Position numbers and translations under genes: made by a program. A stretch of 8,910 nucleotides of DNA, from IMG/VR virus record IMGVR_UViG_2778261536_000007. One strand, written 5' to 3'. Under the pieces are notes generated by a model that did no database searches, had not been told where the DNA came from, and was given only the letters and a program-made list of their open reading frames with translations. Positions within the stretch are counted from its first letter, which is position 1. Every line of letters begins with the position of its first letter. Source of the stretch: a virus. Lineage: Duplodnaviria; Heunggongvirae; Uroviricota; Caudoviricetes. Shown here one piece after another: positions 1 to 8,910 of the stretch.

Positions 1-133
1 CATAACCTGAATCTGAGGCAGCACCTGGCACGGCTGGGACGGAAGTCGCTGTCGTTCTCAAAATCGGTGGAGCTGCATGACAAAGTCATCGGGCATTATC
101 TGAACATAAAACACTATCAATAAGTTGGAGTCA

Positions 134-481
134 TTACCCGCCGTGCGGCCTCAACACCCGAAAAGCTTCTTTAAATCTCTGTCGCAAATCATCACGCCAG
201 GCATCTTTATTCAGCCGTCCATATTTCTTTCCCATCCAGGCGTTATCACCAACACGCTCAAGATGCGGAGGGTCTAATACAACCATCGAAAAAGATGCGT
301 CTGCAAATGATAATGCACGAAAATCTGCGATAATGTCAGGGCTGATAATCAAGCGTCTCCCATTGCGTAATGTGTATCCTTCTTTTCTGATATCGCTGAA
401 TATCGCCCGTTTGTCAGACTTATCGAACCAGAACATGCGGCTGCCACAGCACATATCAAGAATGGTTGCCGGTGCACTCAC
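134..481 (-). CDS. SAM-dependent methyltransferase-like protein (115 aa), possibly an amino-methyltransferase fragment
   Basis: Translation carries a motif I-like ILDMCCGS, a DPPH tetrapeptide (motif IV of N6-adenine/N4-cytosine methyltransferases) and VLRPHGG. Ends at a double stop TAATGA with no room for a target-recognition domain. Probable GTG start at 481 overlapping the upstream stop (GTGA), AGGA about 9 nt upstream. Confidence 0.55.
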   Translation of the reverse strand: MSAPATILDMCCGSRMFWFDKSDKRAIFSDIRKEGYTLRNGRRLIISPDIIADFRALSFADASFSMVVLDPPHLERVGDNAWMGKKYGRLNKDAWRDDLRQRFKEAFRVLRPHGG

Positions 482-900
482 TGCGCCACGTCCTGAAAAT
501 TACCCTGATAGAAAGCCAGTATGCGCTGCATAACTTCGCTCTTCCGGCACTCGCGACAGATTATGTTTAGGCGACTGTCGTAGCGACGTATTTCTCCGTC
601 AGGTGATGACCAGATAAGGTCCGGATCAACCACAGCAGGTTTCTTCACCTTTGCCCTCGAGAGTTTTTTGCGGGCGTTTTGCCAGTCCTTACGCGCCTGT
701 TCAGAGGGGAATAACCCGTAGCCGGAGTTGTATACATCGCCACTGGCTACCAGCTCTCTGGCAAGAACGCTCATCAGATATCTAGTCGCACCTGTTTTAG
801 CTTCCAGTTGCCGTAACGTCTCACGGCCGCTCTGGCGCACGAGTTCCACCACCTGCCATTTAATTTTTTCCCGCTCTTCTTGTGTAAAAACTTTTGCCAC
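478..900 (-). CDS. Hypothetical phage protein (140 aa)
   Basis: Long ORF with GTG start preceded by a strong SD (AAGGGGGA, 3-4 nt spacer). Stop overlaps the start of the downstream methyltransferase-like ORF. No recognised catalytic motif. Confidence 0.5.
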   Translation of the reverse strand: MAKVFTQEEREKIKWQVVELVRQSGRETLRQLEAKTGATRYLMSVLARELVASGDVYNSGYGLFPSEQARKDWQNARKKLSRAKVKKPAVVDPDLIWSSPDGEIRRYDSRLNIICRECRKSEVMQRILAFYQGNFQDVAQ

Positions 901-940: not shown

Positions 941-1906
941 TTATCCTCTGAAACCAGGCGGAATTTCTGTATCCGGTTCAGAAATATGATTAACACAACG
1001 CTGTACAGGTGAACGTCCCAGGCGGATGACCAGTTCGTCCCATTTTTCGCGGAGCTTTGACGGGCTCATGATGTTTTTTACCCAGAATGGATCTCGCTGA
1101 ACCCGACCAAACATTTCGCAAATTTGTCTGTGGCTTCTGCCATCCAGCATCCGCATTGTGCGCACGTCATTGGCCCAGGCAGTCCAGTTAGGCTCTTTTG
1201 GTCGCATGATCTCGCCATCATCACTGGCTGCCTGTTCGTAGAGACCCACGATCCGCCCCCAGATCCACTGCGCACACGCCAAATCCTCCCTGCTACCCCA
1301 CTGGCGTTTTTTCGCACTAAACACAACCGCGTCGGAGTTCCGGGTTAAAGAATCCTGTTCAGTCGTCTGCGGGTCCGGTTGCGAAGCTTCCGGACGAAAA
1401 GTGTTTTTATTCTCTGTAGTAATCTCTGTTGTATTCTCTGTAAGATCATCAGGCCATTTTGACCCGATGACATTGGGTCGTTTTGAACCAATGGAGCGTT
1501 TCATTTTGACCTCTTCCATCGTGTCATTTTGACCTGATGGAGCGGCGCATTTTGAACCGATGGATTCGCTCAATTTGCCACCATCTAAAAGCTCGCTCCC
1601 ATAGTTGATCGTGTAGAAATTGGTCATATCGCGCTTTGATTTATTGAGCTTTTCACAACGCAAAAGCCCCAGCGTTTTCAGACTTGCAAACGCGCGCTTT
1701 AACGTTGATTCTGACCAGAATGGGAACTGTTCAAGCCATTGTTCCGTTGTGTTATAAATCCAGCGAACACCATCACATTCCATGCCGGAGTTGGTATCTC
1801 TCAACCAGTAGTGCAGTTGTTGCAAAACAATGGCTTCGTTTAAGCCAATTTTCATTGCCAGCTGCGTGTTTATAACCAGTGGGCGTTCAGCAAAAAGAAG
1901 GCTCAT
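941..1906 (-). CDS. Phage replication initiator (lambda O-like role) with DnaT-like C-terminal tail
   Basis: First ATG at 1906 (the track's longer ORF to 1960 starts on TTG with no SD). Iterons sit inside the gene as in lambda O, giving a repeated SIGSK peptide. C-terminus ...SEPDTEIPPGFRG resembles the end of E. coli primosomal protein DnaT as I remember it. Confidence 0.7.
   Translation of the reverse strand: MSLLFAERPLVINTQLAMKIGLNEAIVLQQLHYWLRDTNSGMECDGVRWIYNTTEQWLEQFPFWSESTLKRAFASLKTLGLLRCEKLNKSKRDMTNFYTINYGSELLDGGKLSESIGSKCAAPSGQNDTMEEVKMKRSIGSKRPNVIGSKWPDDLTENTTEITTENKNTFRPEASQPDPQTTEQDSLTRNSDAVVFSAKKRQWGSREDLACAQWIWGRIVGLYEQAASDDGEIMRPKEPNWTAWANDVRTMRMLDGRSHRQICEMFGRVQRDPFWVKNIMSPSKLREKWDELVIRLGRSPVQRCVNHISEPDTEIPPGFRG
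1408..1442. repeat. Three tandem 12-bp AT-rich repeats (core TCTCTGT) flanking the iterons
   Basis: TCTCTGT recurs at 1411, 1423 and 1435, a 12-bp period, immediately next to the iteron block inside the replication gene. Confidence 0.6.
1455..1570. repeat. Putative replication origin: five direct iterons of ~23 bp (CATTTTGA[C/A]C + GATGGAGCG-like)
   Basis: Copies begin at 1455, 1479, 1502, 1525 and 1548 with 23-24 bp spacing, all inside the initiator gene. Confidence 0.7.
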
Positions 1907-2408
1907 AATTCCATCCAGCTTTTTGTTGGTATTGCTGTCGATACGCAAGCTTGAAAGCAATTGCTTTTTCTATAAGTTCGTCAGTTTCACGATCCACTAC
2001 GGCAGGATCAGCAAAAAGCAGTCCGGACTCCACCACATCGCCATATTCTTTGTTTAACCCGGCGATCATGCACGTGATGCTTTTTCCGTCAGTAATTTCA
2101 CGATACAACCTGAAATCACTAATCCGGATAGCCTCCATAATCGCAGGCACTAGCGCCGTGAACTTTTCACGCTTATCCCTGGTGTCGATAGCCTTCCAGC
2201 GTTCGAATATCTTCACTCGATTAACACCAAGCGCTCGCTGATCAACCGCGCCACCTTCATCTGTGACACGCTGAACATCGATGTTCGGGCGCTCTTTCAA
2301 AGCCCAGAATGCTTCAGTGATTAATATCGTCGCCTGCTCCTGTGTCATTCCTGGTCGACATATCCAGGCATCCAGAGCCTCACGAGCCTGTTCAGGAGTG
2401 ATTTTCAT
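1887..2408 (-). CDS. Hypothetical protein (173 aa) in the cII position downstream of cro-like dicC
   Basis: ATG start at 2408. Overlaps the dicC stop by 17 nt and the replication gene start by about 20 nt. Function unknown; slot corresponds to cII/YdaT-like regulators. Confidence 0.5.
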   Translation of the reverse strand: MKITPEQAREALDAWICRPGMTQEQATILITEAFWALKERPNIDVQRVTDEGGAVDQRALGVNRVKIFERWKAIDTRDKREKFTALVPAIMEAIRISDFRLYREITDGKSITCMIAGLNKEYGDVVESGLLFADPAVVDRETDELIEKAIAFKLAYRQQYQQKAGWNYEPSFC

Positions 2409-4149: not shown

Positions 4150-4202
4150 TTTCTGGTGACGTTTGGCGGTATCAGTTTTACTCCGTGACTGCTCTGCCGC
4201 CC
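4150..4202 (+). ncRNA. dicF: DicF small regulatory RNA (53 nt), processed from the dicB operon transcript
   Basis: Sequence TTTCTGGTGACGTTTGGCGGTATCAGTTTTACTCCGTGACTGCTCTGCCGCCC matches DicF as I remember it. It sits between ydfC and dicB with no protein-like ORF and ends in a GC-rich stem plus T-run. Confidence 0.7.
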
Positions 4203-4376: not shown

Positions 4377-4565
4377 ATGAAAACGTTATTACCAAACGTT
4401 AATACGTCTGAAGGTTGTTTTGAAATTGGTGTCACTATCAGTAACCCAGTATTTACTGAAGATGCCATTAACAAGAGAAAACAAGAACGGGAGCTATTAA
4501 ATAAAATATGCATTGTTTCAATGCTGGCTCGTTTACGTCTGATGCCAAAAGGATGTGCACAATGA
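4377..4565 (+). CDS. dicB: Cell-division inhibitor DicB (62 aa)
   Basis: ATG at 4377 preceded by GAGGA with 7 nt spacer; the longer track ORF from 4272 has no start signal. Translation MKTLLPNVNTSEGCFEIGV... and 62-aa length match DicB. Confidence 0.8.
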   Translation: MKTLLPNVNTSEGCFEIGVTISNPVFTEDAINKRKQERELLNKICIVSMLARLRLMPKGCAQ

Positions 4566-4753
4566 ATTCAGCATTTGTGCTTGTTCTGACAGTTTTTCTT
4601 GTTTCCGGAGAGCCAGTTGATATTGCAGTCAGTGTGCACAGGACAATGCAGGAGTGTATGACTGCAGCAACCGAACAGAAAATTCCCGGTAACTGTTACC
4701 CGGTCGATAAAGTTATTCACCAGGATAATATCGAAATCCCGGCAGGTCTTTAA
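4562..4753 (+). CDS. ydfD: Small protein YdfD (63 aa) with N-terminal hydrophobic segment, lysis-associated
   Basis: ATG at 4562 overlaps the dicB stop (ATGA), AAGGA 8 nt upstream. N-terminal hydrophobic stretch AFVLVLTVFLV followed by a Cys-containing soluble part. Confidence 0.75.
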   Translation: MNSAFVLVLTVFLVSGEPVDIAVSVHRTMQECMTAATEQKIPGNCYPVDKVIHQDNIEIPAGL

Positions 4754-4846: not shown

Positions 4847-5104
4847 ATGAGTAAAGTCTTTATTTGCGCCGCTATTCCTGACGAACTGGCAACAAGGGAA
4901 GAAGGCGCTGTGGCTGTAGCCACAGCCATTGAAGCTGGCGACGAACGCCGTGCTCGAGCAAAATTTCACTGGCAGTTCCTGGAACATTATCCGGCTGCTC
5001 AGGACTGCGCTTATAAATTTATTGTCTGCGAGGATAAACCTGGCATACCCCGCCCTGCCCTCGATTCATGGGATGCTGAATATGCAGGAAAACCGCTGGG
5101 ATGA
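4847..5104 (+). CDS. Hypothetical small protein (85 aa) preceding the exonuclease gene
   Basis: ATG with GAGG about 10 nt upstream. Its 3' end overlaps the beginning of the long exonuclease ORF in another frame. Confidence 0.55.
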   Translation: MSKVFICAAIPDELATREEGAVAVATAIEAGDERRARAKFHWQFLEHYPAAQDCAYKFIVCEDKPGIPRPALDSWDAEYAGKPLG

Positions 5105-7271
5105 GGAGTCTGCTTCTTTTGTCCCGGTTGAGACTGAATCCGATCCGATGAACGTCACTTTTGACAAGCTGGCCCCTGAAGTACAGAACGCTGTCATGGT
5201 TAAGTTCGACACATGTGAAAACATCACCGTTGATATGGTTATTAGCGCACAGGAATTGTTGCAGGAAGACATGGCAACATTCGACGGACATATCGTTGAA
5301 GCGTTGATGAAAATGCCAGAAGTTAACGCCATGTATCCGGAGCTTAAGTTGCACGCCATTGGGTGGGTTAAGCATAAATGTATTCCTGGTGCTAAATGGC
5401 CCGAAATTCAGGCAGAGATGCGCATCTGGAAAAAACGTCGCGAAGGTGAACGCAAGGAAACCGGAAAATACACGTCTGTTGTTGATCTCGCCCGCGCCAG
5501 AACCAATCAACAGTACACTGAAAATTCAACAGGAAAAATCAGCCCGGTCATTGCTGCCATTCATCGCGAATACAAGCAGACATGGAAAACACTGGATGAC
5601 GAACTGGCCTACGCTCTCTGGCCTGGTGATGTGGATGCCGGAAACATTGACGGCAGCATCCATCGCTGGGCAAAAAAAGAAGTTATCGACAACGACCGCG
5701 AAGACTGGAAGCGTATCTCGGCATCAATGCGCAAACAGCCTGATGCCCTTCGCTACGACCGCCAGACTATTTTTGGCCTTGTCCGTGAGCGTCCGATCGA
5801 CATTCACAAAGATCCCATAGCACTGAACAAATATATCTGCGAATACCTGACGACAAAGGGCGTGTTTGAGAATGAAGAAACAGACCTGGGCACTGTTGAT
5901 GTTCTCCAGTCATCAGAAACACAAACTGATGCAGTGGAAACTGAGGTATCTGATATCCCAAAAAATGAAACCGCGCCGGAAGCTGAACCATCTGTAGAGC
6001 GTGAGGGGCCGTTCTATTTCCTCTTCGCAGATAAGGACGGAGAAAAATACGGTCGCGCAAACAAACTTTCTGGTCTGGATAAGGCACTGGCTGCTGGCGC
6101 CACTGAAATCACAAAAGAAGAATATTTTGCCCGAAAAAATGGCACATACACGGGCTTACCGCAAAATGTAGATACCGCTGAAGATTCAGAACAACCAGAG
6201 CCGATAAAAGTTACCGCTGACGAAGTAAACAAAATTATGCAGGCAGCCAATATCAGCCAGCCTGACGCCGATAAGTTGCTTGCTGCATCACGTGGTGAAT
6301 TTGTTGAAGGGATTAGTGACCCGAATGATCCGAAATGGGTTAAGGGGATCCAGACCCGCGATTCTGTGAACCAGAACCAGCATGAATCGGAACGGAACTA
6401 CCAAAAAGCGGAACAAAACAGCACAAATGCGTTACAAAACGAGCCAGAAACGAAACAGCCTGAACCAGTGGCGCAACTGGAAGTGGAAAAAGTCTGCACC
6501 GCCTGCGGTCAGACCGGCGGCGGCAACTGCCCTGATTGTGGCGCGGTGATGGGCGACGCAACATACCAGGAAACATTCGATGAAGAGTATCAGGTTGAAG
6601 TTCAGGAAGATGATCTGGAGGAAATGGAAGGCGCTGAACATCCACACAAGGAGAACACTGGCGGCAATCAGCATCACAATAGCGATAATGAAACTGGCGA
6701 GACGGCAGATCACTCAATTAAGGTGAACGGTCATCACGAAATCACATCCACCAGCAGGACGTGTGACCATCTAATGATCGACCTTGAAACCATGGGAAAA
6801 AATCCTGATGCCCCGATCATCTCAATAGGTGCAATATTTTTCGATCTGGAAACTGCTGGCGGAGTCATTGATCGGGACACCATTAAATGGTGGCTTAAGC
6901 AATCACGCGAAGCGCAATCTGCCATTATGACCGATGAAATCCCGTTAGATGATGCACTGTTACAATTGCGGGAATTTATCGACGAAAACTCCGGTGAATT
7001 TTTTGTTCAGGTTTGGGGAAATGGAGCCAACTTCGACAACACGATTTTGCGCCGTTCATACGAACGGCAGGGGATCCCCTGCCCGTGGCGTTACTACAAC
7101 GATCGCGATGTACGCACAATCGTTGAGCTGGGGAAAGCCATAGACTTCGATGCCAGAACGGCTATTCCATTCGAAGGTGAGCGCCATAATGCACTTGATG
7201 ACGCCCGTTACCAGGCAAAATACGTTTCAGTTATCTGGCAAAAACTGATCCCGAGTCAGGCTGATTCTTAA
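5082..7271 (+). CDS. RecE-like protein (annotated in databases as exodeoxyribonuclease VIII) with C-terminal DEDDh (DnaQ/RNase T-like) 3'-5' exonuclease domain
   Basis: Track ORF 4929-7271 starts on TTG inside the upstream gene; first in-frame ATGs are 5073 and 5082. Middle segment DKLLAASRGEFVEGISDPNDPKWVKGIQTRD resembles E. coli RecE as I remember it. C-terminal about 170 aa carry DEDDh motifs: DLETMG, WGNGANFDN, HNALDDARYQ. Confidence 0.75.
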   Translation: MQENRWDEESASFVPVETESDPMNVTFDKLAPEVQNAVMVKFDTCENITVDMVISAQELLQEDMATFDGHIVEALMKMPEVNAMYPELKLHAIGWVKHKCIPGAKWPEIQAEMRIWKKRREGERKETGKYTSVVDLARARTNQQYTENSTGKISPVIAAIHREYKQTWKTLDDELAYALWPGDVDAGNIDGSIHRWAKKEVIDNDREDWKRISASMRKQPDALRYDRQTIFGLVRERPIDIHKDPIALNKYICEYLTTKGVFENEETDLGTVDVLQSSETQTDAVETEVSDIPKNETAPEAEPSVEREGPFYFLFADKDGEKYGRANKLSGLDKALAAGATEITKEEYFARKNGTYTGLPQNVDTAEDSEQPEPIKVTADEVNKIMQAANISQPDADKLLAASRGEFVEGISDPNDPKWVKGIQTRDSVNQNQHESERNYQKAEQNSTNALQNEPETKQPEPVAQLEVEKVCTACGQTGGGNCPDCGAVMGDATYQETFDEEYQVEVQEDDLEEMEGAEHPHKENTGGNQHHNSDNETGETADHSIKVNGHHEITSTSRTCDHLMIDLETMGKNPDAPIISIGAIFFDLETAGGVIDRDTIKWWLKQSREAQSAIMTDEIPLDDALLQLREFIDENSGEFFVQVWGNGANFDNTILRRSYERQGIPCPWRYYNDRDVRTIVELGKAIDFDARTAIPFEGERHNALDDARYQAKYVSVIWQKLIPSQADS

Positions 7272-7595: not shown

Positions 7596-7629
7596 CTAAA
7601 AGCCACACTAACTAATGAGAGAAGTTGAA

Positions 7630-8910
7630 ATGAAATATCCGACAGGCGTGGAAAACCATGGAGGGAAATTACGTATCTGGTTTGTTTATAAAGGCGTAAG
7701 AGTCAGGGAAAATCTGGGGGTTCCTGACACAGCAAAAAACAGGCGCGTTGCAGGTGAACTACGCGCCTCTGTTTGTTACGCAATAAAAACTGGTGTTTTC
7801 GACTATGCAAAACAGTTTCCCTCCTCACGCAATCTGGAAAAATTTGGTGAGGCCCGACAAGATTTAACCATAAAAGAACTGGCTGAAAAATTTCTGGCAC
7901 TGAAAGAAACTGAAGTCGCAAAAACATCACTCAACACATACCGTGCCGTCATCAAAAATATCCTGAGCATAATCGGTGAAAAAAATCTTGCCTCATCGAT
8001 TAATAAAGAAAAATTACTGGAGGTTCGTAAAGAGCTACTGACTGGATACCAGATCCCCAAAAGTAACTATATTGTTACACAACCAGGGAGATCGGCTGTA
8101 ACTGTAAATAATTACATGACAAATCTTAACGCCGTGTTCCAGTTTGGTGTTGATAACGGTTACTTGGCAGATAACCCGTTTAAGGGGATCTCGCCATTAA
8201 AGGAATCAAGAACCATTCCGGATCCTCTTTCGCGGGAGGAATTCATCCGTCTTATCGATGCGTGCAGAAATCAGCAAGCCAAAAATTTATGGTGTGTTTC
8301 TGTTTATACTGGCGTTCGCCCTGGTGAGCTGTGTGCACTTGGATGGGAGGACATAGATCTGAAAAATGGAACAATGATGATCAGGAGAAATTTAGCAAAA
8401 GACCGTTTCACGGTACCAAAAACACAGGCGGGAACCAATCGGGTCATTCATCTTATTAAGCCAGCAATCGACGCTCTCCGGAGTCAGATGACATTAACGA
8501 GACTGAGCAAAGAGCATATCATTGATGTTCACCTCAGAGAGTATGGCAGAACAGAAAAACAAAAATGCACCTTTGTTTTTCAACCTGAAGTGTCAGCGAG
8601 AGTAAAAAATTATGGTGACCATTTTACCGTTGACTCAATAAGGCAGATGTGGGACGCAGCGATAAAACGTGCCGGACTCCGCCATCGAAAATCATATCAG
8701 TCGAGACATACTTATGCCTGCTGGTCGCTGACAGCTGGTGCTAACCCGGCATTTATAGCAAACCAGATGGGCCATGCAGATGCGCAAATGGTATTTCAGG
8801 TATACGGAAAATGGATGTCTGAAAACAATAATGCACAGGTAGCTTTGTTAAATACACAGTTAAGCGAGTTTGTCCCAACCATGCCCCATAACGAAGCAAT
8901 GAAAAATTAA
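7630..8910 (+). CDS. int: Phage tyrosine integrase (lambda Int family)
   Basis: N-terminal MKYPTGVE... arm-binding-like start and C-terminal catalytic region (VYTGVRPGEL, SRHTYA, GHADAQMVFQVYGKW with catalytic Tyr). Alternative upstream ATG at 7615. Stop codon is the last three bases of the window. Confidence 0.85.
   Translation: MKYPTGVENHGGKLRIWFVYKGVRVRENLGVPDTAKNRRVAGELRASVCYAIKTGVFDYAKQFPSSRNLEKFGEARQDLTIKELAEKFLALKETEVAKTSLNTYRAVIKNILSIIGEKNLASSINKEKLLEVRKELLTGYQIPKSNYIVTQPGRSAVTVNNYMTNLNAVFQFGVDNGYLADNPFKGISPLKESRTIPDPLSREEFIRLIDACRNQQAKNLWCVSVYTGVRPGELCALGWEDIDLKNGTMMIRRNLAKDRFTVPKTQAGTNRVIHLIKPAIDALRSQMTLTRLSKEHIIDVHLREYGRTEKQKCTFVFQPEVSARVKNYGDHFTVDSIRQMWDAAIKRAGLRHRKSYQSRHTYACWSLTAGANPAFIANQMGHADAQMVFQVYGKWMSENNNAQVALLNTQLSEFVPTMPHNEAMKN

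Follow-up and report, generated by a model that had tools for sequence, protein, structure and literature searches.

A methyltransferase-like reading frame in the defective Qin prophage of Escherichia coli is probably a remnant cut by IS1

We analysed an 8,910-nucleotide stretch of viral DNA (hereafter the window) and found that the short methyltransferase-like open reading frame (ORF) at positions 134..481 on its minus strand is, with a probability of about 0.93, the non-functional remnant, cut by the insertion sequence IS1, of a gene for a phage class I SAM methyltransferase of about 160 aa whose decay took at least two steps. The ORF lies in Qin, a defective E. coli prophage adjoining rspAB. 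Read from the window, the ORF begins with GTG and has 115 codons, giving a 115-aa protein (MSAPATILDMCCGS...VVLDPPHLE...RVLRPHGG) that is closed by tandem stops, TAA and then TGA, directly after RPHGG. A PHROGs profile search matched it to PHROG 954 'DNA methyltransferase' (E = 4.8e-57, 193.8 bits), and 1,878 proteins of our protein collection matched it at E ≤ 1e-5; these matches make the ORF clearly a relative of methyltransferases, not an accidental open frame. The PHROG 954 match and an alignment with intact relatives of 157-162 aa mark it as a truncated methyltransferase pseudogene, and RefSeq annotates it as an ordinary CDS (WP_096264793.1). The first-pass annotation, which was made from the letters alone, had suggested comparing the ORF with methyltransferase families and full-length homologs, and this comparison yielded both the profile match and an alignment in which the C-terminus is missing.

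Identity of the ORF was 87-89% to the intact E. coli copies, 82% to a Klebsiella phage relative and 70% to an Erwinia phage relative, the latter two over residues 5/6-114. Motif I (ILDMCCGS) occupies residues 7-14 and motif IV (DPPH) residues 70-73. Among 42 close relatives, D9, C11, C12, G13, S14, D70, P71, P72 and H73 are invariant, and D70-P71-P72-H73 is still invariant across 70 diverse family members. The Pfam match to the ORF was weak and generic (Methyltransf_25, E = 0.0012, under the gathering score), the Pfam signals for the ORF and its family were sub-threshold Methyltransf_25/11 matches only, and an NCBIfam scan of the ORF returned no family. Thus, Pfam and NCBIfam leave the family undefined and PHROGs defines it. 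Motif I, the DPPH motif, the double stop and a convergent frame (1..123) ending 10 bp away had all been reported in the first-pass annotation, and all are present.

Bases 1..138 (plus strand) are the right-hand end of an IS1A-like element, identified by Pfam and genome comparison and made up of the final 40 codons of the transposase with their stop (1..123), followed by the right inverted repeat. Frame 1..123 lacks a start codon within the window and stops 10 bp short of the end of the ORF; it aligns to positions 92-131 of the 131 in Pfam PF03400 DDE_Tnp_IS1 (E = 7.1e-19; 68.9 bits, cutoff 24.1). This match identifies the frame as the C-terminus of the IS1 transposase InsB, in keeping with the earlier suggestion that it might be the 3' end of a gene. 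The right terminal inverted repeat ends ...GGAGTCATTACC at base 138 and reads GGTAATGACTCC... on the strand of the ORF, so that the breakpoint between IS1 and prophage falls at 138..139, which equals 3000/3001 of the IS1-free locus described below. On the ORF strand, native ...CCG CAC GGC G is followed by IS1-derived GG TAA TGA. Because the inverted repeat abuts native ...GGC G, the second and third bases of the closing glycine codon (codon 115) and both stops, TAA (134..136) and TGA (131..133), belong to IS1, and the native part of the ORF is only 139..481, that is, 114 codons and one base.

This breakpoint bears directly on the frameshifted gene proposed in the first-pass annotation, here taken as a gene that is whole except for a frameshift near 100..160, arising by sequencing error or programmed, and that runs on into a 25-codon frame. 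Such a frame is indeed open after the stop (58..135, minus strand, 25 codons and a stop), but it lies wholly within the IS1 segment, antisense to the 3' end of the transposase, and its sequence is unlike the family's conserved C-terminus (VLIFKWNETQIP...QRTGK.DKTHW), and the alignment refutes this explanation; the same junction is moreover present in a closed genome assembly (E. coli 17MR471). The 25-codon frame thus reads as a chance open frame in IS1 and not as part of the methyltransferase, and we give the frameshift explanation a practically negligible probability. Because this frame is the antisense of the transposase 3' end, resequencing of positions 100-160, as had been suggested, would not restore a gene. 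Programmed frameshifting was rejected in its own right, the continuation frame being IS1 antisense, and we likewise considered and rejected the idea that the gene is split, its second half lying elsewhere in the window.

We then compared window positions 1..700 with 5,426 complete E. coli genomes by megablast. Many genomes were 100% identical over 139..700, with the match starting exactly at base 139, and none of those matches extended into 1..138. Bases 1..138 matched thousands of IS1 copies elsewhere, with a median of 11 matching places per genome. The exact IS1 junction was found in one of the 5,426 genomes, that of 17MR471, a complete closed genome whose chromosome matches the whole window end to end (locus L001); within the 138 IS1 bases compared, the sole difference is at window position 28 (G in the window, A in 17MR471), and the window may thus derive from another assembly or from a strain closely related to 17MR471. 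Taking as hallmarks of IS1 a length of ~768 bp and imperfect terminal inverted repeats of ~23 bp (GGTAATG...), of which the window holds the right end only, we found that the element in 17MR471 is 768 bp long and that 19 of the first 23 bases pair between its imperfect terminal inverted repeats. RefSeq labels this element 'IS1-like element IS1A family transposase', with the transposase annotated as a programmed-frameshift product.

Comparison with the IS1-free locus of E. coli CFSAN064036 (L002) revealed what the element replaced. In 17MR471 the left flank of IS1 matches this locus up to L002:1574 and the right flank from L002:3001, and IS1 therefore stands in place of L002:1575..3000, or 1,426 bp. 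The lost segment comprised an out-of-frame 3' remnant of the methyltransferase and small decayed downstream ORFs, including a DUF7167 pseudogene. The flanks CACCCGCAGTCA and CGCCGTGCGGCC differ, and the 9-bp direct target duplication was absent from the IS1 flanks in 17MR471 because the 1,426 bp beside IS1 are missing. Its absence speaks against a simple insertion but leaves the identification as IS1 untouched. Deletions that start at the element's own end are a known outcome of IS1 activity and leave no duplication, and the same product is expected from recombination between two IS1 copies of the same orientation. Both junctions are contiguous in 17MR471 only, other strains carrying IS1 at different nearby sites, and no genome among the 5,426 shared just one of the two junctions; for this reason adjacent deletion and recombination between two IS1 copies are indistinguishable here.

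We also weighed whether the junction could be an assembly artefact in which contigs were misjoined through the repeated IS1. The 17MR471 chromosome is closed and complete, with consistent Qin prophage sequence on either side of IS1, and this stands against a misjoin even though IS1 is multicopy (the median of 11 matching places given above) and both junctions are contiguous in a single complete genome. The missing target-site duplication would also fit an artefact, but IS1 deletions without duplication are well known. Even with a misjoin, the underlying allele would be a 118-aa pseudogene with a nonsense codon and a frameshift, and the gene would still be dead. We regard an artefact as very unlikely.

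Other mobile-element traces were seen around this site. In other E. coli strains, such as CFSAN051542 (L010:926-1623; hits H88-H95), IS1 copies occur at other positions within a few hundred bases of the locus, so that IS1 seems to have struck repeatedly in the decayed part of Qin that follows the methyltransferase gene. To the left of IS1, outside the window (L001:1048-2097), lie a partial ISEsa1 (IS1202-like) transposase pseudogene and ydfW; they add to the signs that mobile elements have damaged this part of Qin in successive layers.

The length of the undamaged gene could be read from its relatives. Those of Klebsiella phage ST846-OXA48phi9.2 (QBP07693.1) and Erwinia phage vB_EhrS_49 (AXH43497.1) have 160 and 156 aa, respectively, and intact E. 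coli copies have 157 aa (strain 181.1, WP_021575571.1) or 161-162 aa (P0009, P0011 and P0016). The truncation and missing C-terminus that had been suspected earlier are borne out by these lengths of 156-162 aa against 115 aa, and full-length homologs of about 115 aa, which had been named as a possible outcome, did not emerge. A search of a representative library of 1.84 billion proteins with an intact copy returned 2,030 clusters at E ≤ 0.001, in which the match almost always spans from about residue 5 to 157-160; some family members have N-terminal extensions of 50-80 residues, and the C-terminal segment is conserved core. Similarly, the ORF covers positions 52-161 of the PHROG 954 profile, against 49-203 for an intact relative, and so matches the profile without spanning its whole core of ~155 residues. 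Among 40 intact close relatives, 31 columns conserved at ≥90% fall past the end of the ORF, including those of FKWNETQIP and QRTGK.DKTHW.IF.K.

An AlphaFold model of the intact 162-aa P0009 protein, built from a diverse 70-sequence alignment (pLDDT 94.1, pTM 0.89), placed these residues in the fold; it replaced an earlier model from 42 close relatives (pLDDT 69, TM 0.3-0.4 in the fold search). In the P0009 model, which represents the intact relatives, the seven-stranded β-sheet core (β1-β7) is complete, with strand β5 at 110-121, a helix at 127-131 and a hairpin of β6 (138-144) and β7 (150-156). Residue 115, the last of the ORF, falls inside β5, and β6 and β7 are absent, so that the ORF does not hold the seven-stranded class I core. 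The ORF lacks the last ~46 conserved residues, which by this model comprise most of β5, a helix and the terminal β-hairpin.

Lesions other than the IS1 cut were found in the same gene. The IS1-free allele of CFSAN064036 is 100% identical over 139..700 and goes on as ...RPHGVLIF, a stop, WNETQIPVSQILALTDRKPVICQRTGKKR and a further stop. Its first lesion is TTT TAA TGG in place of the intact TTT AAA TGG, which turns Lys119 into a stop; the second, seen in nucleotide alignment with intact copies, is one extra base in a run (GGGAAAAAACG vs GGAAAAAACG), a +1 frameshift past which the conserved NDKTHWIIFMK is readable in another frame only. IS1-free alleles read ...GVLIF, stop, WNETQIP... and ...QRTGKKR, stop, where intact copies read ...GVLIFKWNETQIP... 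and ...QRTGKNDKTHW.... RefSeq flags the CFSAN064036-type copy as 'frameshifted; internal stop', and the 118-aa form also occurs in CE10-type genomes and in phage PhiR42_1. Since the IS1 breakpoint lies 12 bases upstream of this older in-frame TAA, IS1 would have turned a dead ORF of 118 aa into a dead ORF of 115 aa. Moreover, of 69 highly conserved columns the window allele departs from the consensus at seven (H36Y, C39R, D40N, P58S, F69L, T94A and G102R), against 0-3 deviations (median 1) at the same columns in the 40 intact relatives, a comparison that slightly favours the latter, the consensus being drawn from the sequences scored. These seven deviations fit relaxed constraint. The older stop and frameshift, the deviations and the IS1 cut together agree with the 'decayed orphan methyltransferase' that was one reading in the first-pass annotation.

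Decay of this gene extends beyond the Qin allele. Alleles at least 95% identical were present in about 480 of the 5,426 complete genomes, and versions of 80-90% identity, in other prophages, in about 420. Two of the latter were inspected, of which one was intact and the other, from a prophage of E. coli O157:H7 MB41-1 (L009:301-774), carried an independent internal stop at W95. Some database proteins share the N-terminus and carry unrelated tails after residues ~93 (P0018/P0022) or ~106 (P0006 and P0007), and these switched tails suggest other insertions or deletions. These sequences indicate several independent inactivations of the methyltransferase gene.

The 115-aa product itself is probably inactive, as conservation and the predicted fold indicate. 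The opposing idea, raised earlier as a mini-enzyme needing a partner, is that it serves as a functional mini-methyltransferase or SAM-binding subunit whose partner supplies the missing parts. Motif I and DPPH are intact, the native start is kept and translationally coupled to the DUF977 gene, and RefSeq lists the ORF as an ordinary CDS, all of which would suit such a protein. Its end, however, is set by an insertion sequence and not by the gene, and the 46 residues it has lost belong to the most conserved of the family, holding near-invariant positions and three core secondary-structure elements, strands of the fold's core included. The retained part also carries the seven substitutions at conserved positions, and the junction, seen in just one of the 5,426 complete genomes, does not mark a form that has been maintained. 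We consequently assign the mini-enzyme only a very small probability.

The reading that we favour, a remnant dead in at least two steps, can be set out as follows. In an ancestor common to hundreds of E. coli genomes, codon 119, AAA (Lys), would have mutated to TAA, an inserted base would have shifted the frame downstream, and substitutions would have accrued at conserved positions. Later, in the lineage of the window, IS1 would have come to lie after codon 114 and the 1,426 bp beyond it, including the rest of the gene, would have been lost, either by IS1-mediated adjacent deletion or by recombination between two IS1 copies. By chance, the IS1 inverted repeat (GGTAATGA...) provides an in-frame TAA and TGA, and hence a tidy 115-aa ORF of the kind that gene callers accept. 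The wide distribution of the nonsense allele and the single genome with the IS1 junction suggest that the nonsense mutation came first and IS1 second; the window copy has lost the TAA-bearing region, and a TAA in its direct ancestor is thus not readable from the window itself.

The surroundings of the ORF are those of a Qin prophage. The early rightward operon runs in the order cro-like gene, YdaT-family gene, O-like initiator, DUF977 gene and methyltransferase gene, the last one. The 140-aa DUF977 or 'Ren-like' protein is encoded at 478..900 on the minus strand (Pfam DUF977, E = 5.1e-29; PHROG 142, E = 1.6e-47), and its stop shares four bases (GTGA) with the methyltransferase start, as in prophages with intact copies. 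Because of this overlap, the remnant may still be transcribed and translated on derepression of the operon, without bearing on function. The O-like replication initiator lies at 941..1960 on the minus strand (PHROG 391 'replication initiation O-like', E = 6.3e-91; 941..1906 in RefSeq). Its longest ORF (339 aa, TTG start at 1960) reaches 18 codons beyond the annotated CDS (321 aa), into the YdaT-family gene upstream of it (1887..2408).

The Qin locus also holds an integrase, an excisionase, a frameshifted exonuclease gene, ydfD, dicB, the DicF RNA, ydfC/B/A and a cI-like repressor. Full-length DicF small RNA was detected at 4151..4202 on the plus strand (Rfam RF00039, 76.7 bits, E = 5e-16), upstream of dicB (~4377..4565) and ydfD (~4562..4753), an order shared with Qin of E. 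coli K-12. The exonuclease gene (4847..7271, plus strand) is split into two overlapping ORFs, 4847..5104 and 4929..7271, and is annotated as frameshifted in 17MR471; the split is another sign of a defective prophage. The window ends at the stop codon of a tyrosine integrase (7615..8910, plus strand; annotated 7630..8910), and directly past the integrase in 17MR471 follow rspB and rspA, marking the boundary between prophage and chromosome.

We further considered what the intact family may do. A fold search with the P0009 model returned 181 PDB chains at E ≤ 0.001, all of them class I SAM-dependent methyltransferases. The best structural neighbours were RNA enzymes (Bud23 m7G, Trm11 m2G, TrmM m6A, an m4₂C synthase and NSun6), with TM-scores of 0.5-0.6 at 13-18% identity, and M.TaqI ranked lower. 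Querying PDB sequences with an intact relative gave nothing meaningful (best E = 0.3, a metallo-β-lactamase), and literature searches found no experimental paper on the PHROG 954 family. The motif (D/N/S)PP(Y/F/W/H) is an established amino-methyltransferase motif IV. DPPH at residues 70-73 conforms to it, and by this analogy its invariance after β4 suggests that an exocyclic amino group is methylated. The fold search leaves the chemistry unsettled, because Bud23 (m7G) and NSun6 (m5C), which are non-amino enzymes, reach equal scores. Intact members amount to a core of ~155 residues with no target-recognition domain; the earlier argument from the absence of such a domain in the window copy thus loses its force, the intact members having no separate one either. 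The PHROGs label 'DNA methyltransferase' is an annotation only. It is possible, though clearly less likely than not, that the intact family, a minimal methyltransferase of temperate phages, acts on RNA (tRNA or rRNA, like Bud23, Trm11 and TrmM) or on DNA regardless of sequence, and is not the conventional sequence-specific DNA methyltransferase of the annotation. Two features of the P0009 model also deserve mention. Class I methyltransferases usually carry a helix between motif I and the next strand, and the model has none there (residues 10-25). After DPPH, at 74-94, it has a conserved basic loop (R76, G78, W82, K85, K86, Y87 and G88), a candidate substrate-binding element for a protein that has no recognition domain.

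IS1 and the methyltransferase fragment are both already annotated in RefSeq, and a previously decayed gene disrupted by an insertion sequence in a defective prophage is routine genome erosion. RefSeq is inconsistent on this gene: WP_096264793.1 and WP_001310834.1 are CDSs, and an identical allele elsewhere is 'frameshifted; internal stop' (window 134..481; L002:2854-3298; L007:301-657; L009:301-774). The clusters of truncated proteins are large in our protein collection (P0001 with 128 members, P0004 with 385). With the 115-aa and 118-aa remnants listed as CDSs in some genomes and as pseudogenes in others, misleading clusters of truncated 'methyltransferases' arise, which can mislead inference based on length or on motifs. 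The parent family is large, widespread in at least 2,030 clusters at 50% identity, and its study is best begun from an intact copy (the 157-aa protein of strain 181.1 or the 162-aa P0009) and not from the window locus.

Finally, we compared the locus with known systems. Like IS1 of the IS1A/IS1B type from Enterobacteriaceae, the element has the transposase C-terminus, an inverted repeat ending GGTAATGAC... and, in 17MR471, a length of 768 bp; it differs in that the window holds the last 138 bp only, in the missing 9-bp target duplication and, relative to 17MR471, at position 28. With intact members of PHROG 954 the window copy shares ILDMCCGS, DPPH and its place after the replication and DUF977 genes, whereas it ends at residue 115 of ~160, without FKWNETQIP...QRTGK.DKTHW.IF.K, and carries 7 substitutions. 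The closest counterpart is the 118-aa Qin allele (WP_001310834.1 of E. coli CE10; XSB42581.1 of PhiR42_1), which is 96-100% identical over the shared part, has the same substitutions at conserved sites and, on the aligned sequences, appears to be the direct precursor state of the window copy. That allele has the internal TAA (codon 119) and has kept its out-of-frame 3' remnant, while the window copy is 4 codons shorter and has the remnant deleted. The amino-group methyltransferases (N6-adenine, N4-cytosine or N2-guanine) Trm11, TrmM and M.TaqI resemble the family in having motif I ahead of a (D/N/S)PP(Y/F/W/H) motif, in the family an invariant DPPH, and align with the P0009 model at TMq values of 0.57-0.60, 0.61 and 0.51, respectively; they differ from the family by an identity of 13-18%, and the family has no separate target-recognition or RNA-binding domain.
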